25,473 bases of DNA. Origin: Fibrobacteria bacterium. Lineage in GTDB: Bacteria > Fibrobacterota > Fibrobacteria > UBA11236. The stretch covers positions 1 to 25,473 of the forward strand of contig JAYTHY010000099.1 of assembly GCA_043732185.1 (NCBI GenBank), in the 5' to 3' direction. Positions 424-20,289 of the stretch are shown piece by piece (the first letter of the stretch is position 1; each line of letters opens with the position of its first letter). Under the pieces are notes generated by a model, which saw nothing but the letters and a program-made list of their open reading frames with translations, did no database searches and was not told where the DNA came from. Both the position numbers and the translations under genes were made by a program.

Positions 424-449
424 AAAATGTCTAATGGACCTTCAAAAAG

Positions 450-813
450 TGGAGGCGGCGGGAATCGAACCCGCGTCCGAAATCAACTCACCAATCGCTC
501 ATACATGCTTTTCTCCTGATTTGAGTTTCGCTTCCAAACCCACCCTAGGAATCGGTTGGCCTGGTCGCTAGTCCGGATTTTCTCAGCTTCTCCGCCCAGA
601 CGTCAGAGAGACCCAGCCCCAAAGTATTACAATTCGATAGTTGTTGAGACACCCACCACCGAACCGAGGTTACCTAGGTATTAACTAGGCAGCCATAGCA
701 TAAGAATATGATTCTTCTGCATTTGTTTGTTTCCAGTTTTTTTACGAGGCCAACTAGAATCCTCGGCATGCAACTCTCAGTTCATTCGATCCCGTCGAGA
801 CCTTTGCGCCCCC
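450..813 (-). ncRNA. ssrA: tmRNA (transfer-messenger RNA)
   Basis: The minus strand starts GGGGGCGCAAAGGTCTCGACGGG and ends GGACGCGGGTTCGATTCCCGCCGCCTCCA. The acceptor stem GGGGGCG/CGCCTCC has the G3-U alanine identity pair and there is a T-loop GTTCGAT. It carries an internal tag ORF. About 364 nt; the CCA end is not fully encoded. Confidence 0.97.
685..720 (-). other. tmRNA tag-coding region, (A)AEESYSYAMAA*
   Basis: GCA GAA GAA TCA TAT TCT TAT GCT ATG GCT GCC TAG after ACAAAT; typical GCA resume codon and YAxAA C-terminus. Confidence 0.88.
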
Positions 814-899
814 CTGCTTTGTTATGTCCTTAATTGACCATCTTTAATATACCCTAAATGGTGCCAAACAGCTATAGGCTTATAGGGCGTGAGGCACAA

Positions 900-1724
900 T
901 TATTGGAATAAAGCCAAAAGGTTGGTACGCGAAAGTTGGTTGAATTGGCTTATGGCTGCAGCTCCTGTATTTTGCAGCACATCTGTTCGGACCTTTTGAC
1001 TTAAGGCCTGCGCAAAATCCACATCTTCTACGTTGGATAGACCATGAGTCGATTGAATAATCTGGATTCCAACATTTGCTGCAGCAATTTCCAGTCGATT
1101 TTGAAGGCCGCCTTGTGTGCTGCGAGTGTCATTCACTTTACGCATGGCAGTATCGATTGCGGTCATCGCTCTTAAAGCACCATCGGAAGAGGTCAGATTC
1201 TCAGATGTCAGATTGAGCGCGCCTAAGCTGATATCGCTTGTGGGCACGTCCACACTGTCGCCCGTTCTATCACCAACTTGAATATGACCACCGCCGCCAG
1301 CCAAAGCACCACTGCCATCCAGAAGGTGTTGACCGTTGAAATCAGTAGACTTGGAAATTCTATCCATTTCCTGCGAAAGCGATTGAAACTCATTATCCAA
1401 GGCATGACGCTGATCATCGTTAATGGCTCCATTGGCGCTTTGCACGGCCAATTCTCGTTGCCTTTGCAGCATATTTCCTATACTGCTCGATCCGCCATCG
1501 GCGATGGAAAGTGCACCCATTCCATCAGAAATATTTTCCGCCGCACTCCGATAGGCCCTCACTTGTTTTTCAAATTCGCGGGCCATAGCCATGCCTGCTG
1601 CATCATCCGAAGCGCGATTGATCCGCTTCCCGGTTGCCAGTTGCTCTAGTAGTTTATCTTTTTCCTGGGTATTGACCTTCCAATGATGGCTGAGGCGTTC
1701 ACCTTGATGTTTGTCGATTCGCAT
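900..1724 (-). CDS. fliC: Flagellin-family protein (274 aa, essentially D0/D1 only, divergent termini)
   Basis: Motifs QLATGKRINRASDDAAG, ADG...MLQRQRELAVQSANG, EMDRISKSTDFNGQHLLDG, IQVG, RSTQGGLQNRLE and EDVDFA. Start set at ATG 1724 (MRID, compare MRIN; GAGGA 8 nt upstream). The ORF-track start at 1874 lies upstream of the sigma-28 promoter. ATG 1733 and 1757 are alternatives. Confidence 0.9.
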   Translation of the reverse strand: MRIDKHQGERLSHHWKVNTQEKDKLLEQLATGKRINRASDDAAGMAMAREFEKQVRAYRSAAENISDGMGALSIADGGSSSIGNMLQRQRELAVQSANGAINDDQRHALDNEFQSLSQEMDRISKSTDFNGQHLLDGSGALAGGGGHIQVGDRTGDSVDVPTSDISLGALNLTSENLTSSDGALRAMTAIDTAMRKVNDTRSTQGGLQNRLEIAAANVGIQIIQSTHGLSNVEDVDFAQALSQKVRTDVLQNTGAAAISQFNQLSRTNLLALFQ

Positions 1725-1776
1725 TGGAGTCATCCTCACTCTCGGGGATTTTTCCATGTGGATCCCCCTGTTCAGG

Positions 1777-1803
1777 ATATCGGGAGAATTTGGGAAAGCT
1801 TTA
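1777..1803 (-). promoter_or_regulatory. Sigma-28 (FliA/SigD)-type promoter of the flagellin gene
   Basis: Minus strand TAAA-N15-CCCGATAT versus consensus TAAA-N15-GCCGATAA/T, about 50 nt upstream of the flagellin start. Confidence 0.85.
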
Positions 1804-1887
1804 ACGATTTTTTTATGTTTGGGACCTCTCAATTCAACATTTAAACAAACTTCCCAAACGCCTCTTCCTTTCAAGACAAGGATTCCG

Positions 1888-2739
1888 ATGACTGCCTCTT
1901 CCCTTCCCTATCACACTTTGGCATTTGATTTGGATGGAACGCTGCTCGATCCAGCAGGAAATATTTCGACGCGTTCGCTGAGTCTGCTCCGTCAACTTGC
2001 CGGACTCGGATTGGAAATTGTACTGGCTTCGGGAAGAATGACGGCCCGCGTTTCGCCATTTGCGACGGAACTTGGTTTTCCGATAACCTTAATCGCTTAT
2101 AACGGAGCAGAAACCCTGCAAGGCGAAGGAACGGATTGGACGTCCATAGCCACCCGGCCAATTTCCCAACAAACGCGCGATGCCGTCTTTGAACTTTGCC
2201 GGACCCGGAAACATTTTCTCAACATTTATGCGGATGGGAAATTGCACGGTTACCATCCCGATGGTTTATTTGCGGCCTCACACATTTATCAAGCGCAAAC
2301 TGGTGCAACCTATTCTGCTCTGCACCGGGAACTCGAGTCCGTTCCAAAGGACGCCATCGCGAAGTTACTGGTGGTGGAAACACCCGAGATTCGGAACCGA
2401 CTATTTCAGGAATGGTCTCCCCTACTTTCGTCGCATTGTTCCGTGGCTAAATCCAATCCAGAATATCTGGAGCTGATGAATCTTGGCGTGAGCAAAGGTT
2501 CGGCTTTGCAGACTTGGCTTGGTACCAAGGGTCTTACTGCGCAGGGACTCATTGCGTTTGGGGATGCGGATAACGATAAAGAGATGTTGGAATTAGCCGG
2601 TCTCGGCATCGCTATGGGCAATGCCACACCTGGTCTACGTGCTGTGTGCACACGCGTCTCGCCGTGGACCAATGCTGAAGACGGCGTGGCACAGGAACTG
2701 GCTACACTCTTTAATTTACCTTTAGAACCTTCGCTATAA
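1888..2739 (+). CDS. Cof-type HAD-superfamily (IIB) hydrolase/phosphatase
   Basis: Motif I AFDLDGTLL, motif II LASGR, IAYNGA, VSKG and motif IV AFGDADND...AMGNA. ATG 1888 has AAGGA upstream; the longer start at 1711 overlaps flagellin and its promoter. Confidence 0.92.
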   Translation: MTASSLPYHTLAFDLDGTLLDPAGNISTRSLSLLRQLAGLGLEIVLASGRMTARVSPFATELGFPITLIAYNGAETLQGEGTDWTSIATRPISQQTRDAVFELCRTRKHFLNIYADGKLHGYHPDGLFAASHIYQAQTGATYSALHRELESVPKDAIAKLLVVETPEIRNRLFQEWSPLLSSHCSVAKSNPEYLELMNLGVSKGSALQTWLGTKGLTAQGLIAFGDADNDKEMLELAGLGIAMGNATPGLRAVCTRVSPWTNAEDGVAQELATLFNLPLEPSL

Positions 2740-2773
2740 GGAAATGCCGGCATACCGGGACTCCATTTTTTGA

Positions 2774-4324
2774 TTAATAAGGTTGCATTTCCCTATCCAG
2801 ACAACGGTAATGCACCGCTTCGGCGATGTGCGCTTCTCGAATATCTGGACAGGCTTCCAAGTCTGCAATGGTGCGTCCCACTTTAAGTATTCGATCATAC
2901 GCGCGGGCTGAAAATCCCAAGGTTTCTACGGCACTGCGCAGAAGTTTTTTCGCCCCTGTTGTCAAAATGCAGAACTCCCTGGCCTGAATTCCAGACATAC
3001 TGCCATTTGAAAAGATCGCCGCCGAGCGTGCATCTTGCTTATTCTTAAAACGTTCTCTTTGCAGTTTTCGTGCAGCATCCACCCTAGTTCGCACATGTGC
3101 GGAAGACTCACCTAACTCTGCTGCATCCAATTCACCGAAGCCAAGCACCGGTAATTCCAAATGAATATCGATTCGATCCAACATTGGTCCAGATAAACGA
3201 CCGCGATAGCGGACGATTTCCTCCATACGGCATTGGCATCGGCGCTTGGTATCTAAGAGATATCCGCAAGGACAAGGATTCATGGCCGCACCCAATATTG
3301 AGCGACAAGGGTAGGTCAGTGAAATGGATGTGCGTGAAATAGTGACGGACCCTTCTTCCAAAGGCTGGCGCAAACCTTCAATAGCGTCTTTGTGGAATTC
3401 CGGAAATTCATCCAAAAACAATACGCCGTTGTGGGCAAGACTCAGCTCGCCCGGTCGCGACCATCCCCCACCACCCACTAAAGCCTGGTGGCTGATTGAA
3501 TGATGCGGGGATCGAAACGGGCGTTCACGCATGCTGCCTTGACCGGTCTTCAGCAAACCGGCGACGCTGTAAATGCGTGTGGTCTCCAGCGCCTCCTCGT
3601 CGCTGAGTTCGGGCAGAATGGAAGGCAAACGGCGCGCTAGCAATGTCTTTCCACAACCGGGACTGCCTACGAGTAAAAAGTTATGGCCGCCAGCCGCGGC
3701 TACTTCCAGGGCCCGTTTAGCCCCAGCCTGGCCGCGTACATCTGCGAAATCCAATACCTCGCCCGTTGGAACTGAACGACGTATTTTCGGCTCTGGCAAT
3801 CGCTTGGGAAAAATAGGGCATTGGATAAATTCCAAAGCTTCTAATAGGTTTCCGGGTGCGTAAACGGGTAGGCCATCCACCTGATTCGCTTCGATTTTGT
3901 TTTCTAGTGGAATGACTAGGCCAAGGCAGTTGGTTTCCTTGGCGTAAATTGCCGCCGACAATACTCCCCGAATCGGACGTATGGTTCCGTCCAATGAGAG
4001 TTCGCCCATAAATAACAGGCCGTCCAAAGGGGGTCCCGAGATTTGTTCCGAGGCACGGAGTATTCCAATGGCCAAAGGCAAATCGAATGCCGTACCCGCT
4101 TTGCGAATGCCTCCAGGCGCCAAATTTACGGTGATGCGTTTACTTGGAACGCGGAAGCCCGAATTTTTAATGGCTGCGAACACGCGCTCCCGCGCCTCCT
4201 TAACTGCGGAATCTGGGAGGCCCACCAAGGTGAACCCTGGCAGGCCAGAAGTGATATCCACCTCTACCGTGACGGGATAGGCATCAATTCCCGACATGGC
4301 ACATGATGTGACGACGGCTAGCAT
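2774..4324 (-). CDS. comM: YifB/ComM family Mg-chelatase-like AAA+ ATPase (competence helicase)
   Basis: VGLPDSAVKEARERV, ITVNLAP, FDLPLAIG, Walker A GSPGCGKT, RSPHHS, LAHNGVLFLDEFPEF, AAMNPCPCG...CQC, SGPMLDRID and FSARAYDRILKVGRTIADL. Intact, 516 aa. Confidence 0.95.
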   Translation of the reverse strand: MLAVVTSCAMSGIDAYPVTVEVDITSGLPGFTLVGLPDSAVKEARERVFAAIKNSGFRVPSKRITVNLAPGGIRKAGTAFDLPLAIGILRASEQISGPPLDGLLFMGELSLDGTIRPIRGVLSAAIYAKETNCLGLVIPLENKIEANQVDGLPVYAPGNLLEALEFIQCPIFPKRLPEPKIRRSVPTGEVLDFADVRGQAGAKRALEVAAAGGHNFLLVGSPGCGKTLLARRLPSILPELSDEEALETTRIYSVAGLLKTGQGSMRERPFRSPHHSISHQALVGGGGWSRPGELSLAHNGVLFLDEFPEFHKDAIEGLRQPLEEGSVTISRTSISLTYPCRSILGAAMNPCPCGYLLDTKRRCQCRMEEIVRYRGRLSGPMLDRIDIHLELPVLGFGELDAAELGESSAHVRTRVDAARKLQRERFKNKQDARSAAIFSNGSMSGIQAREFCILTTGAKKLLRSAVETLGFSARAYDRILKVGRTIADLEACPDIREAHIAEAVHYRCLDREMQPY

Positions 4325-4364
4325 CAGCAGTCGTGTCCAAATCGAAGGTGGACGGAATACGGCT

Positions 4365-4640
4365 TCATCCGAACAACGGCATGGGACTATTCATTACATG
4401 GTGATATGCCTTTAGGACTTTGCCCTGCAGTTCCATTCGAAACCGCATGGATAGCGTTTCAAAAACGCGGTAGGGTGTTCCTGCACTCAATCCTGGAAAG
4501 GCCAGGAAGAGGCCGTAACGGCCTTGTAATATTTTGATCCCCCTTAGGGTCAAGCTATCGTTTAAGATGACTTCAGCCGTGGCTTTAATGCGCCCTTCTG
4601 ATTCGGAATTGGGTTGGATATGTATCGAGGTAATTTTCAT
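4365..4640 (-). CDS. SpoVG-like protein, divergent second copy
   Basis: MKITSIHI...IKATAEVILNDSLTLRGIKILQGRYGLFLAFP...C-terminal helix ending VLKAY follows the SpoVG pattern. The region after AFP is atypical. Confidence 0.8.
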   Translation of the reverse strand: MKITSIHIQPNSESEGRIKATAEVILNDSLTLRGIKILQGRYGLFLAFPGLSAGTPYRVFETLSMRFRMELQGKVLKAYHHVMNSPMPLFG

Positions 4641-4659
4641 GGTCTTTCTTTCTTGAAAT

Positions 4660-4685
4660 GCCCCACCCGGGTAACCGGGCAGGGC
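4660..4685 (-). terminator. GC-rich hairpin between the two spoVG genes (possible weak terminator or RNA processing/stability element)
   Basis: Minus strand GCCCTGCCCGG-TTAC-CCGGGTGGGGC followed by ATTTC; strong stem but a poor U-tract. Confidence 0.45.
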
Positions 4686-4720
4686 GCTTGTCTTTCGGGA
4701 TATGTATGGGTAGCGGCCGA

Positions 4721-5008
4721 TTAAGCCGCAACCACCAATCGGTATTCGTTGAGAATCCGCTCGGTCATGTATTCATGAAGAGCTTTGCTGATTGGAAAGC
4801 AGAAGTTGTAACCCTTGCCTTCTTTTTTGCTGTACTCTCGTGGGAACGAGATAAATAGCCCGAATTTTCCTTTGACCACTCTTATGCTGTTAATCACAAA
4901 TTGGCCGTTCAAGACGACACGCACAAATGCTTCGAGGGGATTATCCTCTTGCTTGTTGCGCAAAGGGTGAACGTTGACTTCTGTGATTTCGATTTCGTTG
5001 GTGGACAT
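4721..5008 (-). CDS. spoVG: SpoVG family nucleic-acid-binding regulator
   Basis: EITEVNV...LEAFVRVVLNGQFVINSIRVVKGKFGLFISFPR...YNFCFPIS...ILNEY. ATG 5008 has AAGGAG upstream; 95 aa. Confidence 0.9.
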   Translation of the reverse strand: MSTNEIEITEVNVHPLRNKQEDNPLEAFVRVVLNGQFVINSIRVVKGKFGLFISFPREYSKKEGKGYNFCFPISKALHEYMTERILNEYRLVVAA

Positions 5009-5064
5009 TGCTGTCTCCTTTTCAAGTTGAAGTGGGATGCTCACACATTTCCACTTCTGGTTCA

Positions 5065-5137
5065 TTTAGCCGAATTGGCTGATGGACCTTAATGCAAAGG
5101 AGATGCCAAACCGAATTCCAACTGCAATTCGGCTAAA
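5065..5137. repeat. Perfect 13-bp inverted repeat flanking the sigma-54 promoter
   Basis: TTTAGCCGAATTG (5065-5077) and CAATTCGGCTAAA (5125-5137) are exact reverse complements. A third CCGAATT core lies at 5111-5117. Confidence 0.8.
5093..5109 (-). promoter_or_regulatory. Sigma-54 (RpoN) -24/-12 promoter upstream of spoVG
   Basis: Minus strand TTGGCATCTCCTTTGCA has exact GG-N10-GC spacing and matches TGGCAC-N5-TTGCW. Confidence 0.82.
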
Positions 5138-5193
5138 ACGGGCGCAGCTGGCCCTTTTAGGGCCAGAAAATTAAAAACCGGAAAACTAAGGTC

Positions 5194-5250
5194 GGTGAAG
5201 TACGCTGCAATGTGGTGAAGTATGGTGAACTTCAATGCAGTTTGGTGAAG
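5194..5250. repeat. Helically phased GGTGAA(G/C) boxes forming two imperfect 27-bp direct repeats
   Basis: GGTGAAG 5194, GGTGAAG 5214, GGTGAAC 5224 and GGTGAAG 5244. Segments 5194-5220 and 5224-5250 match at 21 of 27 positions. Confidence 0.75.
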
Positions 5251-5281
5251 GGCTAGGCCCCAGGAAAAAGAGCAGGAACTT

Positions 5282-5584
5282 TTAGAATCCGAAATCTTTC
5301 ATTAAGCGATCCGCCAACTTTTCTTCAAAGTCGGGGGAATTGAAATATCCGGATGCAATTTTTTCCTTGGCCTCTTGAACCTTTTCGGCGCGAACATCCG
5401 GCATTGCGTCAACATGACGCGCAATCGACTCGGTATCCGCTGACGAAGACAGTTCTTTGGCCTTTTTAGACAAGGAGACAGAATCGCTTTTTACCGGCTT
5501 TTCAGTTTCCTTGGGCCCTTTCCCGCTTCCGGAAACCTTCTGCAGGTCCATTCCGAAAATCTGAGATATTCTGTCAATTTTCAT
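5282..5584 (-). CDS. flgM: Anti-sigma-28 factor FlgM
   Basis: 100 aa with a charged, flexible N-half, then DSVSLSKKAKEL and PDVRAEKVQEAKEKIASGYF...LADRLM, the FlgM signature. It has a sigma-28 promoter upstream. Confidence 0.9.
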   Translation of the reverse strand: MKIDRISQIFGMDLQKVSGSGKGPKETEKPVKSDSVSLSKKAKELSSSADTESIARHVDAMPDVRAEKVQEAKEKIASGYFNSPDFEEKLADRLMKDFGF

Positions 5585-5605
5585 TGGATCTCCCTCTATT
5601 CTCTA

Positions 5606-5632
5606 TTATCGACCAATCGCGGTCCGAACTTA
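5606..5632 (-). promoter_or_regulatory. Sigma-28-type promoter of flgM
   Basis: Minus strand TAAG-N15-GTCGATAA, one mismatch in each box versus TAAA-N15-GCCGATAA; GAGGGAG RBS downstream. Confidence 0.8.
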
Positions 5633-5682
5633 AGTGAATACGTCAGGAAATGATTCAACAATACCGGCAAACCTCAAAATGC

Positions 5683-6012
5683 TCAACGATTGGCCAATTC
5701 CTCTTCATTATCGACAATTTCAAACAAGCGATCGATGGAGGTCATTTCAAATAAGTCATAAATATCATCTGAAAGCCGCATGAGTATCAATCTGCCCCCC
5801 GCAGCTTTGAGATCCTGGTGGCAGGTAATGAGCATACCGACCCCAGAACTGTCGATAAAACCCACATCCGCCATATTAGCTACTAAGAAAAGCTTTTTTT
5901 CTTGAATGGCTTTTTGAATGGCCAGCCGAAAATGCGAGACTTCATTTCCCTTGATATGCCCGGTAATATCGAGTATATGCCATTTTCCGTTGACGCGTTG
6001 CTTAATCTCCAT
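5683..6012 (-). CDS. STAS-domain anti-sigma-factor antagonist (SpoIIAA/RsbV-like)
   Basis: 109 aa; ILDITGHI, NMADVGFIDSSGVGMLI (conserved phosphorylatable DSSG serine), GGRLIL and LFEMTSIDRLFEI. Confidence 0.92.
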   Translation of the reverse strand: MEIKQRVNGKWHILDITGHIKGNEVSHFRLAIQKAIQEKKLFLVANMADVGFIDSSGVGMLITCHQDLKAAGGRLILMRLSDDIYDLFEMTSIDRLFEIVDNEEELANR

Positions 6013-6018
6013 GCATCC

Positions 6019-7683
6019 TCAATCCAGTTTTGGTGCCGCTATGGGCAAAGTAATGGTTACCACGGTTCCTGATTCTTTTTCTGATTCCAAAGTAATATTT
6101 CCATCCAATGACTGCACGTAATGCTGGCAAGTGGACAAACCCAGGCCTGTACCGGCCGCCTTACTGGTAAAAAAGGGTTCAAAAGCGCGCGCCGCTTCTT
6201 GAGGATTCATGCCTTTGCCATTGTCTTTAACCTTGAGAATGACATTCTTACCCATTCTGTTGGCTGTAAACTCCAGTTTGCCCTTACCCTCATGAAGGGC
6301 CTGAAGCGCATTCAGTGCAACATTCAGCAGGACCTGGACGAGAATATCCTGATCACTTATAAACCGAATATCTTCATTTTCTATAAAATGGCTCGTATTT
6401 ACAATAGCCTTGTCGTAACTCGGGCTTTTTTCCAGCATGAATGTGATTTTTGAAAAGATCTCACGAATGGATACTTCACGATAGGCAGGTCGGCTATCGC
6501 GGGAATAATCGAGTAGCCCGGAAAGGATACGGTCTAAACGTGCGGATTCAGTGACAATAAGCCCCAATAATTTGAGGTCAGACTCATTTTTAAATGAAGC
6601 ATCTCGCAGAAGTTGAGCCGATCCACTGATGCTGGCCAACGGGTTGCGGATTTCATGGGCTACCTTGGCTGCCATAGTGCCAAGTCCAGCCATGCGCTCG
6701 GATCTTAAAAGCGCCCGGCCCATGCGGCGTTCCTCCGTCAAATCAATCATAAGTACGACCCAACCTATATACTGACCTTCGCGGATGAGCGTTTTGATTT
6801 GTATAAGAAGAGGCTGTCCGGAACTCATCTTGGCTTCCAACTCCGTATAAGGAAATTTGTCTTTTAGGCGACGCATTTCCTCTAAAATTGCGGATGGAAA
6901 TACGCCTTGTAGAACGGAAAACATACCCATTCCTGGGTCCAAATTCCGATTCAGCCACGCTTCACACAATCCATTTTTGAACTTTAGAAATCCTTCTGCA
7001 TCAAAGAATAACAAGCCGGTCGGCAAGCCATTCATAACCGTTTCCGCACTAAACTGATACAAGTCCATCGCCTTATGCGCACCTTCCAAGGCCTGTCGCG
7101 CGACTTGCAATCTTCCTGCCAGTAAGGAAGACAACAAAGCGACCATGTAAAACAAGGTGGTATAAAGAAAAAATCGGACTTGGACGGTTTCCAAGTTTAA
7201 CTGTGGCAAGGTGCTCTCAATGATGCCGGGTAGTCCTAAGTGGATCAAACCGATATATCCAAATATTGTGGCCGCGGCAGTAGCTGTAACAATGGCGCCC
7301 CAATACCTAAAGAAAAATCCCGCACTAAGAATGGTCAAGATAAAGAGCAGGCCGTAATCAGAACGGTACCCATCATTCGAATAAAAAATAGCGCCTTCCA
7401 CTACCAGCTCAATTAGGAATTGAAAGTAAAGCAGGAAGCCTACTGGTGAGGCCTTGCGTTTGCGATGGGAAGCCGCCCAGGTGGCCAGATACAACACGGT
7501 TGAAACACCATAAATCAGAACCAAGCCTTTTCCAATGGATTCTTTGTCAAAGGCTAACGCAGCCCAGAAAAGCACTAGAAACATGGCGACGCGTGAGAAC
7601 ACCACCGCCAATATATCGAAGCTGTTTTCCCCGGACTCGGCGGTTTTAAACGGCGTCACCTCATTAGGAGTCGCTGCTTCCAA
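6019..7683 (-). CDS. pilS: PilS-like membrane sensor histidine kinase
   Basis: About six hydrophobic N-terminal segments, a PAS-like linker (PTGLLFFDAEG), H-box AHEIRNPLASISGS, N-box QVLLNVALNA, G1 DNGKGM, F-box FEPFFTSK and G2 GTGLGL. It follows pilC, as in the pilBTC-pilS arrangement. Confidence 0.82.
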   Translation of the reverse strand: MEAATPNEVTPFKTAESGENSFDILAVVFSRVAMFLVLFWAALAFDKESIGKGLVLIYGVSTVLYLATWAASHRKRKASPVGFLLYFQFLIELVVEGAIFYSNDGYRSDYGLLFILTILSAGFFFRYWGAIVTATAAATIFGYIGLIHLGLPGIIESTLPQLNLETVQVRFFLYTTLFYMVALLSSLLAGRLQVARQALEGAHKAMDLYQFSAETVMNGLPTGLLFFDAEGFLKFKNGLCEAWLNRNLDPGMGMFSVLQGVFPSAILEEMRRLKDKFPYTELEAKMSSGQPLLIQIKTLIREGQYIGWVVLMIDLTEERRMGRALLRSERMAGLGTMAAKVAHEIRNPLASISGSAQLLRDASFKNESDLKLLGLIVTESARLDRILSGLLDYSRDSRPAYREVSIREIFSKITFMLEKSPSYDKAIVNTSHFIENEDIRFISDQDILVQVLLNVALNALQALHEGKGKLEFTANRMGKNVILKVKDNGKGMNPQEAARAFEPFFTSKAAGTGLGLSTCQHYVQSLDGNITLESEKESGTVVTITLPIAAPKLD

Positions 7684-7725
7684 TGGACTTAGCCGTGCGC
7701 TTTCACTGCCGTAGTCGAATTCCGT

Positions 7726-8925
7726 TTACCCAACGGTTCCGGCCATTTCAAACATTGGCAAATACATAGCCACCAGCACGCCACCAATGACAGATCCAAG
7801 CACAACAATAACCAAGGGTTCTATCATGGCTGTTAAGGCATCCACGGCCGCATCCACTTCGTCGTCATAAAAATCCGAAATTTTAATGAGCATATCCGAT
7901 AAACCACCGGTCCGTTCACCAACCGCGATCATTTGAATGACCATGGGGGGAAACACGCCCGTAGCCCTTAAGGGATCCGCAATGGTTTGGCCGCCGGATA
8001 TGCTTTCCAGCGTTTTATAAATTCCGATTTCCAAAACTTTATTGCCCGCGGTTTTGGCCGTCACTTGCAAGGCGTCGATAATGGATACGCCGGAATTGAG
8101 CAAAGTGCCAAGCGTTCTGGTAAAGCGGGAAATACACGACTTGCGTTCCAGATCCCCGAATACCGGGGCATTCAGTAAGATCCGGTCCATTTTCAATTTT
8201 CCTTTATCCGTTTTATAATAGCGCAAAAACATGAAAATGCCGGCGCCGGTCGCCACTAATATGGCCAAGATCCAATGCCTGACAAAATCTGAAATGCCCA
8301 TCACAATTCTCGTTGGCAGGGGTAATTTTGCGCCGCTTTCGCCAAACATATTTGCAAAAATAGGGACCACAAAAACCATTAGAATGGTGACGGCGGCAAC
8401 GGCAACAATGGCTACGATAATAGGATAGGTCATAGCCCCTTTTATTTTTCGCCGCAAGGCATCGGCTTTTTCCTGATATTCCGCCAGGCGCAGTAAAATG
8501 GTATCTAGAATACCACCGGCTTCACCCGCCGCGATCATCTGGCAATACAGTTCAGAAAATATTTTACGGTGTTTGGCGAGGGAGTCTGCCAAGGTTCCAC
8601 CACCTTGAATATCCGCCGCTACTTGCATGATGGAGCGTTTCAACACTTCGTGCTCGGTTTGTTCCTGCAAAATGTCCAAACATTGAATCAGTGGCAAACC
8701 AGCTGAGGACATGGCCGAAAATTGACGGGTAAACCGGGCCATCACCCGCAGCGGTACCCCACCTTGCATGTTAAACTTCCAGTCAAGCGGCTTGCGCTTG
8801 ATCATGTTCGCGCGGACGCGCTTTTTGCGCAGCAGCACTTCCACGTCGCTTTTATTGCTGGCTTCGATCTCCCCGGACACTTCTTTGCCGGCTGTGGTTC
8901 TTCCTGAATAAAGCCATTTGGACAT
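7726..8925 (-). CDS. pilC: Type IV pilus platform protein PilC (GspF family)
   Basis: FTRQFSAMSSAGLPL, AGEAGGILD, KIKGAMTYP, VPIFANMF...LPLPT, VGERTGGL and AMYLPMF. Confidence 0.96.
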   Translation of the reverse strand: MSKWLYSGRTTAGKEVSGEIEASNKSDVEVLLRKKRVRANMIKRKPLDWKFNMQGGVPLRVMARFTRQFSAMSSAGLPLIQCLDILQEQTEHEVLKRSIMQVAADIQGGGTLADSLAKHRKIFSELYCQMIAAGEAGGILDTILLRLAEYQEKADALRRKIKGAMTYPIIVAIVAVAAVTILMVFVVPIFANMFGESGAKLPLPTRIVMGISDFVRHWILAILVATGAGIFMFLRYYKTDKGKLKMDRILLNAPVFGDLERKSCISRFTRTLGTLLNSGVSIIDALQVTAKTAGNKVLEIGIYKTLESISGGQTIADPLRATGVFPPMVIQMIAVGERTGGLSDMLIKISDFYDDEVDAAVDALTAMIEPLVIVVLGSVIGGVLVAMYLPMFEMAGTVG

Positions 8926-8962
8926 GATCTATCTCCGAAATCTCATTGAGGGACGGGCCTGC

Positions 8963-10030
8963 TTAAGAACGGTAATTTCCAGCCAGCAGGCGTTCAAAGT
9001 GTTCCTGGTCTATTGAGCGCGCCAACGCGTCGCTGCGTTCCACTTTACGGGCTTGCACCAATTCAACAAGTTTGGCATTCATCGTATTCATACCGAATTT
9101 GGTTCCAGATTCAATCGCACTTTGAATTTGATGAATCTTGTCATCACGAATCATGGAACGGATGCCGGTGGTCATGGTCATGACCTCATAGCAGATAATG
9201 CGCCCGCCACCAATTTTAGGCAGCAAACACTGGCTGATCACGCCTTGCAATACAAAGGAAAGTTGGGTCCGGATTTGAGATTTTTCACCGGCAGGAAAGG
9301 CATCGACTATGCGGTTGATGGTTTGGGCTGCCGAATTGGTATGCAAGGTCGCCAGCGTCAAATGCCCGGTTTCAGCAATTGATAGCGCCGCCGCCATAGT
9401 TTCCGGATCTCGCATTTCTCCAATGAGCACGACATCCGGGTCCTGACGCAAGGCTACGCGCAATGCGGATGCGAAAGTATCCGTATCGGCACGGACCTCT
9501 CTTTGATTGATGATACACCGTTTGTGTTTGTGCACAAATTCAATCGGGTCCTCTACTGTGAGGATATGACCTTCCAATTCGGTATTTAATTTGTCGATCA
9601 TGGCTGCCAAGGTAGTCGACTTACCCGAACCCGTAGGGCCAGTTACGAGAACTAGTCCAGAAGGACGCTCTACTAATTCGGAAAAAATCTTAGGCAATCC
9701 CAACTGTTCCAAACTTTGGATTTCAAAGGGGATGAAACGGATGGCCATAGAGACGCAACCGCGTTGCAAAAACGCATTGGCGCGGAAACGCGCTAAATTG
9801 GAAACTCCAAAGGAAAAATCGTATTCCCTTTTCTGTTCAAAACTTTTGCGTTGGGATTCATTCATGATGCCGTACGCCAGCCGCATACACTCTTCCGGAC
9901 TCAAGGAATCGCTCATGTAGGGGCGTAAAAAGCCATGGACGCGGAACATGGGAGGACGGCCATTAGTAATATGGAGATCCGATGCCCCCATTTCCACCAT
10001 CTTACTCAGTAGTTCTTGAATGCTAACCAT
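8963..10030 (-). CDS. pilT: Type IV pilus retraction ATPase PilT
   Basis: ASDLHI, GPTGSGKSTT, TVEDPIEF, QREV, ALRQDPDVVLIGEMRD, AETGHL, TLHT and an AIRNLIRE-like GIRSMIRD. Confidence 0.96.
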   Translation of the reverse strand: MVSIQELLSKMVEMGASDLHITNGRPPMFRVHGFLRPYMSDSLSPEECMRLAYGIMNESQRKSFEQKREYDFSFGVSNLARFRANAFLQRGCVSMAIRFIPFEIQSLEQLGLPKIFSELVERPSGLVLVTGPTGSGKSTTLAAMIDKLNTELEGHILTVEDPIEFVHKHKRCIINQREVRADTDTFASALRVALRQDPDVVLIGEMRDPETMAAALSIAETGHLTLATLHTNSAAQTINRIVDAFPAGEKSQIRTQLSFVLQGVISQCLLPKIGGGRIICYEVMTMTTGIRSMIRDDKIHQIQSAIESGTKFGMNTMNAKLVELVQARKVERSDALARSIDQEHFERLLAGNYRS

Positions 10031-10096
10031 GCACAGGCCTCCACCGGCGATACTGCCAAACCGTTTGGTCTTTCCAGTCCCTTAAAATAGATAATA

Positions 10097-11794
10097 TCAT
10101 ATCTTCGTTGATTTAATCACTTCCTGGGCTGTGGTAACGCCTTCTTTGAGTCGCACTAAAGCTGCCATTCGCAAAGTGAGCACCCCCTCCGCTATGGAAA
10201 CCTTTTCAATTTCATCCGGAGTAGCCCGGTCCACGATCATCTTGCGTATTGCATCCGAAATCGGTAATACCTGATGGATAGCCAGTCGGCCCTTGAACCC
10301 TGTATTGGAACACATGGCGCAGCCTGCACCTTTGTAGAGCGTCAAAGTTTTGGCTTCCTCCTCGCCAATTTCGAGTAAGCGGTACACTTCCGAATCCACT
10401 TTGTCTTCCACCTTGCAATTCTTACAAATCCTTCGGACCAACCGTTGGGCAATAATGAGTCGAACGGAGGTCGCCACCAGGAAAGGCTCAATGCCCATAT
10501 CGGCCAAGCGCGTAATCGTGCTGGGCGCGTCGTTGGTATGCAAGGTGCTCAAGACTAAATGACCCGTGAGCGCGGCCTTGGTGGCTATTTGCGCCGTTTC
10601 CAGATCCCGAATCTCACCTACCATGATGACGTCCGGATCCTGTCTTAAAAAGGATTTCAAGGCGGCCGCAAAAGTAAGCCCGATATCCGTTTTAACAGCC
10701 ACTTGATTGATGCCTTCCAAGTTGTATTCCACAGGGTCTTCCGCGGTCATGATATTGGTATCCGGAGTGTTGATGCTGGACAGCGCCGAGTATAGAGTTG
10801 TCGACTTGCCGGAGCCGGTAGGACCCGTAACGAGAATCATGCCGAAAGGTGAATTCAAGGCTTCGGCGAAATCCCGCAACGACTTTTCCGAAAACCCCAT
10901 CTTAGACATGTCTAGGTTTAAGTTGTCCTGGTCCAGAATACGCATAACCACTTTTTCGCCCCAAATTGTTGGCAAAACGCTGACGCGCAAATCGATTTTC
11001 TTGCTGCCAACATTCATCTTGATGCGGCCGTCCTGTGGCAAGCGGCGTTCGGCAATGTCAAGACTGGCCATAATCTTTAGTCTGGAGACAATCGCGGCCC
11101 TGAGTTTATACGGTAGTGTCGTTTGTTCGATTAATGTTCCATCCATACGATAGCGGACACGCATGGTTTTTTCATAGGCTTCAACATGGATATCCGAAGC
11201 TCTAAGCCGCACGGCGTCGGTCAAAACCTTGTTGACTAGGCGCACCAGCGGAGCCTCCATCACATTGTAATCGGATGCCCCATCATCGACGGAACTTTCC
11301 GGAATGATTTCAAGATTGCTTTCTTCGACATCCTGTAAAAGCCCTTCCATGACCACGTTGTTCACGGAAGTGAGGTAATACTTTTCAATGGCCTTTTTAA
11401 CCTGCGATTCTGGCGCCATCCAAACCCGTACATGGCAGCCGGTTAAAAACTTGATGGCATCCACCACAAAAATGTTCTTTGGGTCTCCAATCACGATATG
11501 AATCAGGCGATCTTCTTTTTGGACCGGTATCACGCCATACTTGGTAGCCATTTCTTCGGGTACTAAGGAAATAATGGCCGTAGACACATTCATTTCATTG
11601 AGGTTTACCACCTGGGTATTAATCTGTGCGGCCAGTTGCCAGACGATGTCATCCACCGAACCAATAGCCCGCACCGCCACCAGGTTTTCACCTAAGGTGC
11701 CGCCTTTTTCGGTTTGCAGCTTTAAGGCTTCCCCCAACTGATCCGGGGTCACTACCCCATCCCGTAGAAGAATTTCCCCTAATTTCTCATTCAA
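10097..11794 (-). CDS. pilB: Type IV pilus assembly ATPase PilB
   Basis: N-terminal KLGEILL...LGENLV (MshEN-like), ASDIHVE, ERRLPQDGRI, GPTGSGKSTT, LRQDPDVIMVGEIRD and the Zn motif CKNC...CAMC. TTG start. Confidence 0.96.
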   Translation of the reverse strand: MNEKLGEILLRDGVVTPDQLGEALKLQTEKGGTLGENLVAVRAIGSVDDIVWQLAAQINTQVVNLNEMNVSTAIISLVPEEMATKYGVIPVQKEDRLIHIVIGDPKNIFVVDAIKFLTGCHVRVWMAPESQVKKAIEKYYLTSVNNVVMEGLLQDVEESNLEIIPESSVDDGASDYNVMEAPLVRLVNKVLTDAVRLRASDIHVEAYEKTMRVRYRMDGTLIEQTTLPYKLRAAIVSRLKIMASLDIAERRLPQDGRIKMNVGSKKIDLRVSVLPTIWGEKVVMRILDQDNLNLDMSKMGFSEKSLRDFAEALNSPFGMILVTGPTGSGKSTTLYSALSSINTPDTNIMTAEDPVEYNLEGINQVAVKTDIGLTFAAALKSFLRQDPDVIMVGEIRDLETAQIATKAALTGHLVLSTLHTNDAPSTITRLADMGIEPFLVATSVRLIIAQRLVRRICKNCKVEDKVDSEVYRLLEIGEEEAKTLTLYKGAGCAMCSNTGFKGRLAIHQVLPISDAIRKMIVDRATPDEIEKVSIAEGVLTLRMAALVRLKEGVTTAQEVIKSTKI

Positions 11795-11912
11795 CGCTAT
11801 TTACGCCTTTCCAAATGGGCCAAGTGGCCGGACTTCTTAAAGCCATATTTGCCGTTTTTTGTGTATATTGTAAGACACATCCACCCAATAATCCACCATA
11901 GGACTTATTTCC

Positions 11913-12419
11913 TTGTTTAAGCTGACTGCAAGCACCGTTTCCGGCATTGTTCTCTTCGCGGTCCTACTGATGTTCTCGGGTTGTGGGCAAAAACAGTCGA
12001 TTTCCGGTCAAATACCAACCATTGCTTTTAAAACCTATGCTGGCGACTCCTTTACATTGTCCGCGGAAGACAAGACCGTTACCCTTTTAGTGTTTTGGGC
12101 AACCTGGTGTCAGCCCTGCTTAATGGAAATTCCTTCCCTGGTGCGGCTCCATGATAAATTTCATGACCGTAATTTTAGGGTGCTGGCTGTAAATGTGGAC
12201 GACCCGGAAGGCCAAAAGGTCCGCGCTATTAGTCGTGAATACGGCATAACTTATCCAGTGCTCGTCGGCACAGAGGCAATCATGAAACAGTTCGGTGGAA
12301 TCACCGGGCTGCCGACTTCCTTTATAATCGGTAGGGACGGTCGCATCCGTGAAAAACTGCAAGGATTAAGACCAGAACAAGAGCTTGAACACAAAGTTCA
12401 ATTGGCATTGGGAGAATAA
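11913..12419 (+). CDS. TlpA/ResA-like thiol-disulfide oxidoreductase, probable lipoprotein
   Basis: Signal peptide with lipobox-like FSGC; [14 protein letters not shown], YPVL and the [12 protein letters not shown] cis-Pro loop. The TTG start is uncertain. Confidence 0.9.
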
Positions 12420-12421
12420 AA

Positions 12422-13849
12422 ATGGGCCAGAACCTATACCATAAAGTATTTGATAAACATACGGTGGGCACGCTGTCCTCGGGACAGCATCAATTATTCA
12501 TTGGCCTACATCTCATCCATGAAGTGACCTCGCCGCAGGCATTTTCCCTGCTTAAGCAGCGGGGACTAAAGGTTCGCTTTCCAAAGCGCACCTTCGCCAC
12601 CGTAGACCATATTATTCCTACGGAAGCATTGGAACGTCATCGTCCCTTGAAAGATGCGTTGGCAGAAGAAATGCTGGTGGCAATTGAGAACAATACCAAG
12701 GAAACGGGCATCCAATTTTTTGGCGAAGATTCTGGAAGCCAAGGCATCATCCATGTCATTGGGCCGGAATTGGGCCTGACCCAGCCCGGCCAAACCATCG
12801 CTTGCGGGGACAGTCATACCTCCACGCATGGCGCCTTCGGATCTCTGGCTTTCGGCATCGGCACCAGTCAGGTGGCGGATATTCTCGCAACTCAGACCAT
12901 GAGCATGTCCAAACTCAAGGTCCGCAGAATTAATGTAACGGGCAAGTTACGCCAAGGGGTATATGCCAAGGATGTGATTCTCGCTATCATCAATAAGCTC
13001 GGTGTTAACGGTGGTGTGGGCTATGCGTATGAATACGGTGGCTCCGTGATCGAGGCCTTTTCGATGGAAGAACGGATGACTTTGTGCAACATGTCCATCG
13101 AAGGAGGCGCGCGCATCGGATATGTCAATCCGGACGAGACGACATACGCCTACCTTCGTGGCCGGACCTATGCGCCAACTGGAGCAGAATGGGATAAAGC
13201 CTTAGCCTATTGGAAAAGCATTGCCTCCGATGCCGATGCCGAGTATGCCGATATCGTTGAGTTGAATGGATCGGCTCTGGAACCCTTTGTGACTTGGGGA
13301 ATAACCCCCGCGCAATCGTTGCCGGTTTCACAGGCTATTCCCGCGGTCTCGTCCTTTTCCACCGATGACCAACCTTTGATCCTGGAAGCCCTTGAATACA
13401 TGTCGCTCAAGGAAGGCCAAGCCATTGCCGGCGTGCCCGTGGATGTGGTATTTATCGGATCCTGCACCAACGGTAGACTGTCTGATTTGGAAGAAGTGGC
13501 GCGCTTGGTGAGTGGGCACAAGGTGAATGCCCGTGTCAAAGCTTTAGTGGTTCCCGGTTCCTGGGCTGTACAACATCAGGCCGAAGCGCTTGGACTCAAG
13601 GAAATTTTTCTGACGGCGGGTTTTGAATGGCGGGAGCCCGGTTGTTCCATGTGCTTGGCCATGAATCCTGATAAATTAAAAGGGCGACAGGTTTGTGCGT
13701 CGACCTCAAATCGAAATTTCAAAGGTCGCCAAGGTTCAGCGTCTGGCCGCACACTGCTTATGAGCCCAGCCATGGCCGCTGCGGCCGCGATTACAGGCGT
13801 GGTCGCCGATGCTCGCAAAGTATTTTCGATGGAAAAGGAGTTAGCATGA
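12422..13849 (+). CDS. leuC: 3-isopropylmalate dehydratase large subunit
   Basis: [49 protein letters not shown] and [12 protein letters not shown]. Confidence 0.97.
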
Positions 13850-15965: not shown

Positions 15966-16040
15966 GGTTATCTTTAATTGTACCTTTCGCCCCGATGTCC
16001 GGTTGAACCCGGCCCATCCCCATCCATTCAGGAAAGAATT

Positions 16041-16715
16041 ATGACCGAGGATAAAAACCCAGAATCAAATCTCAAGCCGATTCCCGTCCCGGAACCGCCC
16101 CCTACCGCCAAGAAGACTCCCGCGCCTAAGCCTCCTGCTAAGCCGGCGGCCACGAGTGGCGCGAACAAGGCCTCCGAAATCAAAAAACCGATTTTGAAGG
16201 AAGAGGATCTTTACCCTTCCGATGAAGAAGAAGAAGACGAGGACATGGATGAGGATTCTCCCGAGTTGTTTGGAGATGAACCCGGTGCCGATGTAGAACT
16301 CGACACGCTCCCCGATGCCATTCTAGGCGCGACGGATACGTCGGAGCGCATTATTTTGGTTGTGGACGAAGATGGGCAAAGACGCAATGAAACCGTTGCC
16401 ATCATCACTCAGATTCTGCCCAATGCTGTGATTGAAGTTGCCGATGATCCGGAAGAAGCTTTGGCCATGATGGATGAAGGAGATTTCGACACGTTCGTGG
16501 TCAACTTCTTGATGCCCGGCTACTCCAGCTCTGCATTTGTAAAAGCCGTTGCCAACCATCCTGAACATCCTCTGCTAATCGGCTTTGCAGCAGATAAAAT
16601 GTCCGATGCCGTAGACCCCAAAAAGGGTCTTAAAATTATTCCGCTTAAAAGGCTTTTTGATCTCGATACGAGCACGAGCGCCGAACCTCCCGATGCATTG
16701 GCACCCGAGGACTAA
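16041..16715 (+). CDS. Hypothetical protein with a Pro/Lys-rich and acidic N-terminus and an atypical (pseudo-)receiver domain
   Basis: ILVVDED...VADDPEEAL...FDTFVVNFLMPG resembles a CheY-like fold with Asn at the phosphoacceptor position. ATG 16041 has AGGA upstream. Confidence 0.7.
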   Translation: MTEDKNPESNLKPIPVPEPPPTAKKTPAPKPPAKPAATSGANKASEIKKPILKEEDLYPSDEEEEDEDMDEDSPELFGDEPGADVELDTLPDAILGATDTSERIILVVDEDGQRRNETVAIITQILPNAVIEVADDPEEALAMMDEGDFDTFVVNFLMPGYSSSAFVKAVANHPEHPLLIGFAADKMSDAVDPKKGLKIIPLKRLFDLDTSTSAEPPDALAPED

Positions 16716-18438: not shown

Positions 18439-20289
18439 TTAAATGTTTGGGCTCGATGTCCCTTGGGACTGCAAGGCATTTCCAAAGCGAGATTCTGCCG
18501 TTTTCCAGAGTTCTTGCAAGCGATTTCCCTGGGTACCGAGCGCGAGCCGCAAGGATTCCAAGTTTTCACCTGGATAGGGCCGGAGATTCACGAAACTTTG
18601 ATAGTACTGAAGTCCATTCATAAGGTTTTCGCGCACCAAAGCCAAATAAGCATGCGCCTTGGCATCACCCTCAACCAACTTGTCCACCATCTTTTGAAAG
18701 TAATCCACGGACATCACCAAATCCTTGGTGAACATATGCGGTCGGTCCGCGGGAACCAGGGAGCGACCTCGACCATAAATATGGTTTACCATTTCTCGGA
18801 GTGTATAAAGCCTGTCGAAGTAAGCGATATTGGGACCAGGACAAACGGAAACTGGCATGCTTGCAGAGATGACACCGAGATTGATCAAAGCCCCATTGCC
18901 GAGCTGATCGCAAATGCATGACTTCTGGTAGACTTGTTGAATTTTCTGATCAGTGGTGTTCGAAGGAGGGACTTTTTCTACGCCCATGTCCTTTAACTTG
19001 ATGCCTTGATATTCCTTGGAAGCGGTGCATATGGGCTTTTCCGTGAACTCGGTATTGGAGACCAGAAAACCTTTTGGGCAGGGTGAACCCGGCTTTCCGT
19101 TGTCGATTTGCTTTTTGGTCCATTGTTCGGAACTGGAATTGCGCAGATTGTTGAATACCACTCCAAGAGGGGAAACATCGCTGAGATACAAATCCTCTTC
19201 CTTGGCATCGGCAAGTGCTTGGCGGGTTGCAGCATCCAGTGCCGTGGCCTCGGGCACGAGTAGAAAGGGGCTGGCCCATCCGGTGGCGTCGATACCGTAC
19301 CCTTCCATAAGTCGCTGCACTTCGCCGTAAATTCCAATGCCGCCTTGGGCGGTAACCGGAATGTTTCGATTGCGACTGGCCAGAGGATAAACCTTTCCCT
19401 TTTTTTCGTAATAGGAAACGATCATGGGTTCAAACAGCTCGGCAAACTTGTCGCGGTTGTCTTTGAACTCTTGCAGGATAGGTCCCATCAAATAGCCATC
19501 AGACGCAAAAGCATGTCCGCCGCAGTTGAGACCAGACTCAATGCGAAATTCCCGAACTTCAATTCCTTTTCGGGCGATAAACTTGCCTTGAATCATGCTG
19601 GAGCGATAATCTGAGACCTTGAGAATAACGCCCTTTTTAGCTTCCGCCTCCCCTACCCGGTAAAAATCCGGGAAGTTTTCCATATAGCCGTAGAGGGTAG
19701 GATTAATGCCGGCTGAATACACGATGTTGCCGTTTACTTTGGAATTGGCAAAGCCGCGTAGGGCGGATTTGGCATCCGCATGTTCCATACTCATGGCGTG
19801 GCCATCGCGATCATAGGTGATGCGGTCGAGCTTGGTCATGATATTGCAATTGATTTTGCCGGGTAGAATCAAGTTGTTGAGTTCGTTTTCCAGCTGTCTT
19901 TTTTCCGAACCATCCATCATTTTCAGATAAGACTGATAGAGTTTTCGGACGGGTGAGGATTCCGGCAAAAGCTCGAAATACTTGATTTTATCGTTCCCGG
20001 ACTCGAATGGCTGGGCGCGAATTTCGGCAATTTGCTTTTCCACCACATCGTGAACCAGGTCCAAATAGGCGGTAATCCGGCGAGCACGAGCATCGGGTTG
20101 TCCGGCCGAAATACTTTGATACTCCAAACCATAGACGCCTGTGTAGTACTTGCGAATCCGTTCAATCAGCAAATCGTCCACAATGGAGATGACGGAGGAT
20201 ATTCCGTATTTGGCGATTCTCAGGGGGGAATCAATGGTAAAACCAGTCCCCATTACGGGAATATGGAAAGAATGGTGGGTTTTATACAT
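18439..20289 (-). CDS. Conserved hypothetical protein; putative FMN TIM-barrel oxidoreductase (nitronate monooxygenase/FabK/FabX-like) with a Cys cluster
   Basis: 616 aa; IPVMG, SAGINP, IESGLNCGGH, IPVTAQGGI, DATGWASPFL..PEA, SPLG, CPKG/CTAS/CICDQL and CPGPN. The ORF is secure; the function is inferred. Confidence 0.65.
   Translation of the reverse strand: MYKTHHSFHIPVMGTGFTIDSPLRIAKYGISSVISIVDDLLIERIRKYYTGVYGLEYQSISAGQPDARARRITAYLDLVHDVVEKQIAEIRAQPFESGNDKIKYFELLPESSPVRKLYQSYLKMMDGSEKRQLENELNNLILPGKINCNIMTKLDRITYDRDGHAMSMEHADAKSALRGFANSKVNGNIVYSAGINPTLYGYMENFPDFYRVGEAEAKKGVILKVSDYRSSMIQGKFIARKGIEVREFRIESGLNCGGHAFASDGYLMGPILQEFKDNRDKFAELFEPMIVSYYEKKGKVYPLASRNRNIPVTAQGGIGIYGEVQRLMEGYGIDATGWASPFLLVPEATALDAATRQALADAKEEDLYLSDVSPLGVVFNNLRNSSSEQWTKKQIDNGKPGSPCPKGFLVSNTEFTEKPICTASKEYQGIKLKDMGVEKVPPSNTTDQKIQQVYQKSCICDQLGNGALINLGVISASMPVSVCPGPNIAYFDRLYTLREMVNHIYGRGRSLVPADRPHMFTKDLVMSVDYFQKMVDKLVEGDAKAHAYLALVRENLMNGLQYYQSFVNLRPYPGENLESLRLALGTQGNRLQELWKTAESRFGNALQSQGTSSPNI

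Follow-up and report, generated by a model that had tools for sequence, protein, structure and literature searches.

A flgM gene behind the type IV pilus motor genes of Fibrobacterota

The window analysed here is a 25,473-nucleotide stretch of DNA from a Fibrobacteria bacterium (contig JAYTHY010000099.1), in which the genes for a type IV pilus motor are followed by a sensor kinase gene, a gene for a small STAS protein and flgM, which encodes the anti-sigma-28 factor. The locus raises the question of why a flagellar regulator should stand at the end of a pilus operon. The sequence-only reading of the window had proposed a pilus-flagellum link in which the STAS protein acts on FlgM. Comparison with related genomes showed that the synteny behind this link is real and wider than had been supposed, and it spoke against the STAS-FlgM pair as the means, since flgM stands behind pilC in 17 loci that carry neither kinase nor STAS. 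We tentatively read flgM as the terminal gene of the pil operon with an internal sigma-28 promoter, and the STAS protein as working with another partner; our confidence in this reading, which is drawn from sequence, falls a little short of even.

Gene order in the window and across the phylum

All six genes lie on the - strand in the order pilB-pilT-pilC-kinase-STAS-flgM, as had been described, and the family matches bear this out. PilB, the type IVa pilus assembly ATPase (10097-11794), scored 696 bits against TIGR02538 (cut-off 676); PilT, the retraction ATPase (8963-10030), scored 475 against TIGR01420 (cut-off 319); and PilC, the inner-membrane platform protein (7726-8925), scored 225 against PF00482 (cut-off 25), which it matches twice, the top NCBIfam model for it being myxobacterial PilC at a score under its cut-off. 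PilB, PilT and PilC are encoded in one co-directional unit with gaps of 66 and 37 nt, as in a type IVa pilus motor operon. They are followed by a PilS-like sensor histidine kinase with HisKA and HATPase_c domains (6019-7683), by a STAS-only anti-sigma-factor antagonist (5683-6012; TIGR00377 64.1, cut-off 53.5) whose DSSG motif contains Ser55, and by flgM (5282-5584; TIGR03824 46.2, cut-off 40.75; PF04316 also above cut-off), for which the profile retrieves solved FlgM proteins. The STAS gene begins 6 nt past the kinase stop and flgM 98 nt further on; both gaps had been given correctly. The nearest PilC (90% identical) belongs to Fibrobacterota, as do the named homologues of STAS, kinase and FlgM, with the exception of one STAS match and one kinase match labelled Okeania.

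The surroundings of pilC were compared in a genome scan anchored on PilC, because selection for STAS or flgM was to be avoided. At least 599 stretches were found, and the best 80 of at least 560 relatives were kept. By record titles and a PilC tree, 37 loci were assigned to Fibrobacterota; 36 of these form one PilC clade with the window, L016 being left out of the tree because its PilC was too short, and 14 of the 43 loci from elsewhere were also placed. Loci with less than 500 nt behind pilC were dropped (L001 and L022 from Fibrobacterota; L042, L049, L054 and L063 from the others).

Among the 35 informative Fibrobacterota loci, flgM is found at the end of the pil locus in 31, with PilC sequences as little as about 60% identical. 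The order of the window, pilC-pilS-STAS-flgM, is conserved in 14 of them, yet not in the way a STAS-FlgM model needs, as flgM directly follows pilC in 17 others. The link is broken in four loci (L011, L033, L038 and L043), one reading pilC-pilS-STAS-redoxin (L011) and three pilC-nadC. The arrangements follow the tree: clade A, which contains the window and is titled mostly Fibrobacteria (support 99/92), carries kinase and STAS, and clade B, titled mostly Chitinispirillaceae or Chitinivibrionales (support 100/99), is without both. The sister of L011 is L012, where flgM is present, and the three nadC loci are nested in clade B; the counts are not independent and come down to few events, roughly a single clade difference and two losses. 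One locus, L009, bears the title Bifidobacteriales although it has the full gene order and a PilC that groups within the Fibrobacterota clade; it is probably a mislabelled or mixed bin.

Six-frame profile searches of all the loci gave no additional copies of STAS or FlgM. Outside the phylum, where 39 of the 43 loci were informative, neither STAS nor flgM was found in any of the 39. Five of these loci, titled Zixiibacteriota, Ignavibacteria or uncultured, carry pilC-pilS followed by a DUF255 protein gene or lexA, and L062 has a PilS-like membrane domain at the contig end. From this distribution the pilC-pilS pair looks older than the phylum. The genes before pilB and those after flgM (spoVG, an uncharacterised secreted protein, AraC with aspartokinase, a short RpoD-like sigma factor, Yip1 and others) vary, between clades and inside them. 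The link that spans the phylum is thus that of the pil operon to flgM, the STAS gene going with the kinase.

The kinase is PilS-like. Six hydrophobic N-terminal segments (predicted membrane helices) precede the HisKA and HATPase_c domains, the ATP-binding boxes are intact, and the H-box histidine, His343, is invariant in the 34 aligned sequences. Its score against PF25323 (6TM_PilS) is 18.1 bits with a cut-off of 27; 29 of its 34 aligned relatives match this model at E<=0.01, and many homologues carry the name PilS in their source records. Its near-invariant Arg31 was not used as evidence, because a search turned up no paper to confirm the contact of PilS Arg24 with pilin. It has been reported that the pil regions of Geobacter and Myxococcus run pilB-pilT-pilC-pilS (PMC5065972; PMC6060248). 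The Fibrobacterota locus shares both the order and the six-helix kinase. Unlike those regions, it continues with STAS and flgM after pilS and has no pilR or pilA. This replacement, to which the sequence-only reading drew attention, is not special: the five loci from other phyla also have pilC-pilS without a regulator behind it, and pilS without pilR is commonplace among these lineages.

No cognate regulator gene was found at the kinase locus. Across the window and the 80 loci there were only two sigma-54 activators, neither of them directly behind pilS, and the one in L013 is a 320-aa protein with no receiver domain. A motif search found no pilin-like N-terminus in any open reading frame of the window and the 80 loci, in agreement with the earlier statement that the window lacks a pilin. 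The accompanying statement that it lacks a response regulator had to be amended: a receiver-fold protein is encoded at 15978-16715 (+; PF00072 25.8 bits, below cut-off), with Asn at the position which, read by eye from the receiver motif, is that of the phospho-accepting Asp. The window therefore contains no phosphorylatable regulator. The domain of this pseudo-receiver is near-invariant in seven related loci and its N-terminus is acidic and proline-rich; a role in localisation or as a scaffold is conceivable.

Proposed transcription into flgM

A sigma-28-type site (5606-5632, -), overlooked in the sequence-only reading, sits within the 98-nt gap, 21 nt before the flgM ATG. Such sites were matched to a sigma-28 consensus. 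In the window alone the matches are at chance level (5 where 2.64 are expected; 5 or more were seen in 11 of 100 shuffles). With at most two mismatches, a site precedes flgM in 30 of the 32 loci compared, the window being one of them; the corresponding figures are 0 of 15 for STAS, 0 of 29 for pilC and 1 of 25 for pilB. In L015, L025 and L027, where the gap before flgM is 41-42 nt, the -35 element begins inside the STAS stop codon. Profile scores above cut-off together with this predicted promoter mark the gene as that of an anti-sigma-28 factor, and the conservation of the site suggests that flgM is not dependent on the pil transcript.

Terminator-like hairpins were placed mainly behind flgM. 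A lenient hairpin-plus-U test was positive before flgM in 15 of 32 loci and after it in 23 of 31, and at two intra-operon gaps in 5 of 26 and 3 of 29. A strict test at -10 kcal/mol, devised after the lenient results had been seen, left a single positive locus of 32 before flgM and 15 of 31 behind it. That strict hairpins occur after flgM and seldom before it supports read-through from the pil genes. A terminal position of flgM in the operon is further supported by its staying with the pil operon in both PilC clades while the outer neighbours are reshuffled, and by its being kept behind pilC in the 17 loci where kinase and STAS are absent.

There is a precedent for such logic in Bacillus subtilis, where transcripts that run on from comF (comFA) into flgM can increase FlgM and so reduce flagellin (PMC4793158, PMC12265714). 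The Fibrobacterota locus is similar in having a co-directional operon upstream of flgM, without an intrinsic terminator before flgM on the strict test and less clearly so on the lenient one. It is unlike comF-flgM in that the upstream genes are pilB-pilT-pilC (with pilS and STAS), that flgM is terminal with no flgN-flgK-flgL behind it, and that no ComK-like inducer is known. A second comparison is with Pseudomonas aeruginosa, where PilSR controls swimming via fleSR (PMC6058289). The likeness is that a kinase sensing pilin acts on flagellar genes; unlike PilSR-fleSR, which acts positively through PilR and sigma-54, the route proposed here uses FlgM.

If the pil operon ends with flgM, transcription would start at the pilB promoter, run through pilT and pilC (and in clade A through pilS and STAS) into flgM, and end after it. 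Pil read-through would supply FlgM without need for sigma-28; higher pil transcription would give more FlgM, hold sigma-28 and lower flagellin expression, and the internal sigma-28 promoter of flgM would provide the usual negative feedback. A candidate for the pil operon promoter is an element at 11860-11880 (-) with a sigma-70-like -10 hexamer at 11867-11872. Read by eye, the element is common to the window and 9 of the 25 loci displayed, with a TATAAT-like sequence in most clade B loci. It was not picked up by a generic promoter scan, which with its terminator counterpart gave counts no higher than chance over 700-12500, and no sigma-54 or sigma-28 site was found before pilB in the window. 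A flagellin-like gene at 900-1754 (-), outside the operon and 3.5 kb from flgM, has a sigma-28-type site at 1777-1803 and is a likely target of control by FlgM and sigma-28. Its product passes both Pfam flagellin domains and is below all NCBIfam flagellin cut-offs shown; the protein is short, has a divergent N-terminus and is conserved in L005-L008, where a sigma-28-like site was seen by eye before the four homologues. It is perhaps a minor flagellin.

The rival that survives best, although we hold it to be unlikely, is that flgM has been a separate sigma-28 unit behind pilC since the phylum ancestor and that pil transcription stops before it. The conserved promoter of flgM, the lenient hairpins in front of it, the long gaps in L019, L020, L028 and L029, the loss of the link in 4 of 35 loci and the restriction of the sample to the best 80 of at least 560 relatives would all agree with such inert synteny. 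It accounts poorly for the retention of pilC-to-flgM in both clades while both outer flanks reshuffle, for strict terminators after flgM and not before, and for gaps of 41-69 nt in seven loci, which leave little space beside the promoter.

The STAS protein and its partner

The predicted structure of the STAS protein (pLDDT, the predicted local distance difference test, 93) best matched RsbV and SpoIIAA, with template modelling (TM) scores of 0.80-0.90 at 19-26% identity, and its DSSG aligned with that of SpoIIAA. The STAS-only fold, the phosphorylatable Ser in D-S-x-G and the TIGR00377 score above cut-off are those of the RsbV/SpoIIAA type; among 74 homologues the motif is DSSG in 72 and DSTG in 2. 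The locus is unlike those of RsbV and SpoIIAA in the low identity and in the lack of rsbW/spoIIAB, phosphatase or sigma genes: no RsbW-like kinase or PP2C phosphatase was found among the 15 window proteins, and no RsbW-, RsbU-, FliA- or PilR-like protein among 96 flanking proteins, a subset from 14 loci. A profile search with STAS returned four close clusters, followed by multi-domain STAS proteins together with a handful of single-domain members at 96-130 bits, and an atlas search returned generic anti-sigma antagonists only. The STAS protein is best read as a canonical anti-anti-sigma factor with its kinase encoded elsewhere; it would be translated with pilS, phosphorylated on serine and work with an RsbW-like kinase, not with FlgM.

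STAS occurs in 15 of the 80 loci, each time directly 3' of the kinase, its start overlapping the kinase stop in 8 of 10 loci displayed, and the two genes agree in presence and absence in all 35 informative Fibrobacterota loci. Within the near clade STAS is 74-89% identical, comparable to PilC and PilT (74-86% and 75-88%), and the kinase 44-64%. Such strong conservation argues for a constrained partner.

That partner had been proposed to be FlgM: unphosphorylated STAS would bind FlgM, as HsbA does in P. aeruginosa, and free sigma-28, with pil co-expression balancing both. We regard this as doubtful, somewhat more so than inert synteny. It is consistent with the constrained conservation, with the serine motif retained in all STAS proteins, with STAS standing directly before flgM in 14 of 15 STAS loci, and with the HsbA-FlgM binding reported in P. 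aeruginosa (PMC6482189; PMC8256260). The likeness to the HptB-HsbR-HsbA-FlgM system is one of family and serine position, a STAS-only protein (Ser55 against Ser56 of HsbA) plus FlgM. The HsbA gene lies beside that of the kinase/phosphatase HsbR (PMC8256260), whereas the neighbours of the Fibrobacterota STAS gene are the HisKA kinase and flgM, with no adjoining HsbR-type receiver-PP2C-kinase gene. The precedent is also weaker than had been stated, as Pseudomonas putida HsbA was reported not to be an FlgM antagonist, FliA-dependent expression being unchanged and FlgM not co-precipitated (bioRxiv 10.1101/2024.11.25.625174). Furthermore, flgM holds its position without STAS in 17 loci, and no conserved block specific to the STAS clade was seen by eye in FlgM. 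The STAS protein of L011, with no flgM at its locus, is no more diverged than that of L012; this and the invariable position of STAS behind the kinase count against FlgM, which is probably not the partner of this small regulator.

Two further comparisons favour neither side. Distance correlations among STAS, FlgM, PilS and PilC over 15 taxa were 0.92-0.99, and once PilC was removed they were an uninformative 0.23 for STAS-FlgM and -0.19 for STAS-PilS. Complex prediction of FlgM (68-row alignment) with STAS (47-row) scored 0.00 in two runs against a mark of 0.32, with the controls unfolded, and is evidence neither way.

A combination, less probable again, would have flgM wired ancestrally into the pilus-motor operon and, in one clade, a STAS protein, gated by phosphorylation, whose binding to FlgM lifts sigma-28 repression; one operon would then encode pilus motors, pilin sensor, flagellar brake and brake antagonist. 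Least probable is a non-canonical, pilus-side adaptor, with the PilS-like kinase or a pilus motor as its binding partner, that would replace part of the missing downstream output: the overlap or near-overlap with the kinase gene, the matching distribution and the loss of a recognisable PAS domain from clade A kinases, retained in the five kinases outside the phylum, would suit it, but HisKA kinases phosphorylate Asp, not Ser, the STAS rate tracks PilC rather than the faster kinase, all five outside-phylum pilS loci are without STAS, and fold and motif are those of an ordinary RsbV/SpoIIAA.

Several facts also weigh against the preferred reading of flgM as the terminal gene of the pil operon with a STAS protein partnered elsewhere. 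Strict hairpins are lacking both before and after flgM in the window, the lenient test does find terminator-like hairpins before flgM in nearly half of the loci, a strong hairpin precedes flgM in L028, and some gaps reach 234-443 nt. The short gap before flgM in many loci by itself lowers the hairpin count, and both tests are blind to Rho-dependent termination. If the pil promoter is constitutive, read-through would give basal FlgM only and no switch. As for STAS, its pattern with pilS amounts to about two tree events (the clade difference and the L011 loss), none of the five pilS loci outside the phylum has it, and the 96 flanking proteins yielded no RsbW/RsbU-like partner.

Neighbouring features and possible meaning for Fibrobacterota

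The N-terminus of PilB (11660-11794, -) carries an MshEN-like motif (NF053729 41.1 bits, cut-off 38) in which Lys replaces the first Arg, a replacement kept across the phylum; a cyclic di-GMP input to the pilus motor is possible. In four loci a gene for a sigma factor of 286-289 aa stands tail to tail with flgM (L018:1635-2501, L020:11999-12868, L028:11915-12784 and L050:11773-12633, all -). It was considered as FliA and rejected, as RpoD-like models score far higher.

Other features of the window were noted in passing. A tmRNA gene at 447-813 (-) was found by ARAGORN and Rfam RF00023, and the region matching it in L005 is closely followed by a phage-type integrase gene, which suggests an insertion site. 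Two tandem spoVG genes stand before comM/yifB (4365-5108, -), and the sigma-54-type site at 5093-5108 recurs in all eight spoVG-bearing loci. Between flgM and spoVG, a protein of 290-620 aa is encoded in L002 (8493-9410), L004-L008, L010 and L013 and is absent from the window; it opens with a signal-peptide-like segment, continues with a low-complexity linker that varies, and ends in a conserved C-terminal domain with no Pfam match in the six scanned. A 616-aa protein is encoded at 18439-20289 (-), a position conserved in several related loci.

In the literature searched, most subscription papers being outside the search, no description of a pilC-flgM or pilS-STAS-flgM linkage was found. Fibrobacterota have been described as polymer degraders with predicted type IV pili and ancestral flagella (PMC4704652), and the term flgM is absent from the text of that paper. 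The phylum-wide pil-flgM arrangement thus appears undescribed, although its component families are known and its likely logic has precedent. Trade-offs between pili and flagella are known for few groups of bacteria. If the reading of flgM as a pil-operon gene is true, Fibrobacterota would offer an independent second example of the read-through control seen in Bacillus competence, here tied to pilus motors, and the link could govern the choice between swimming and attachment to cellulose or chitin.

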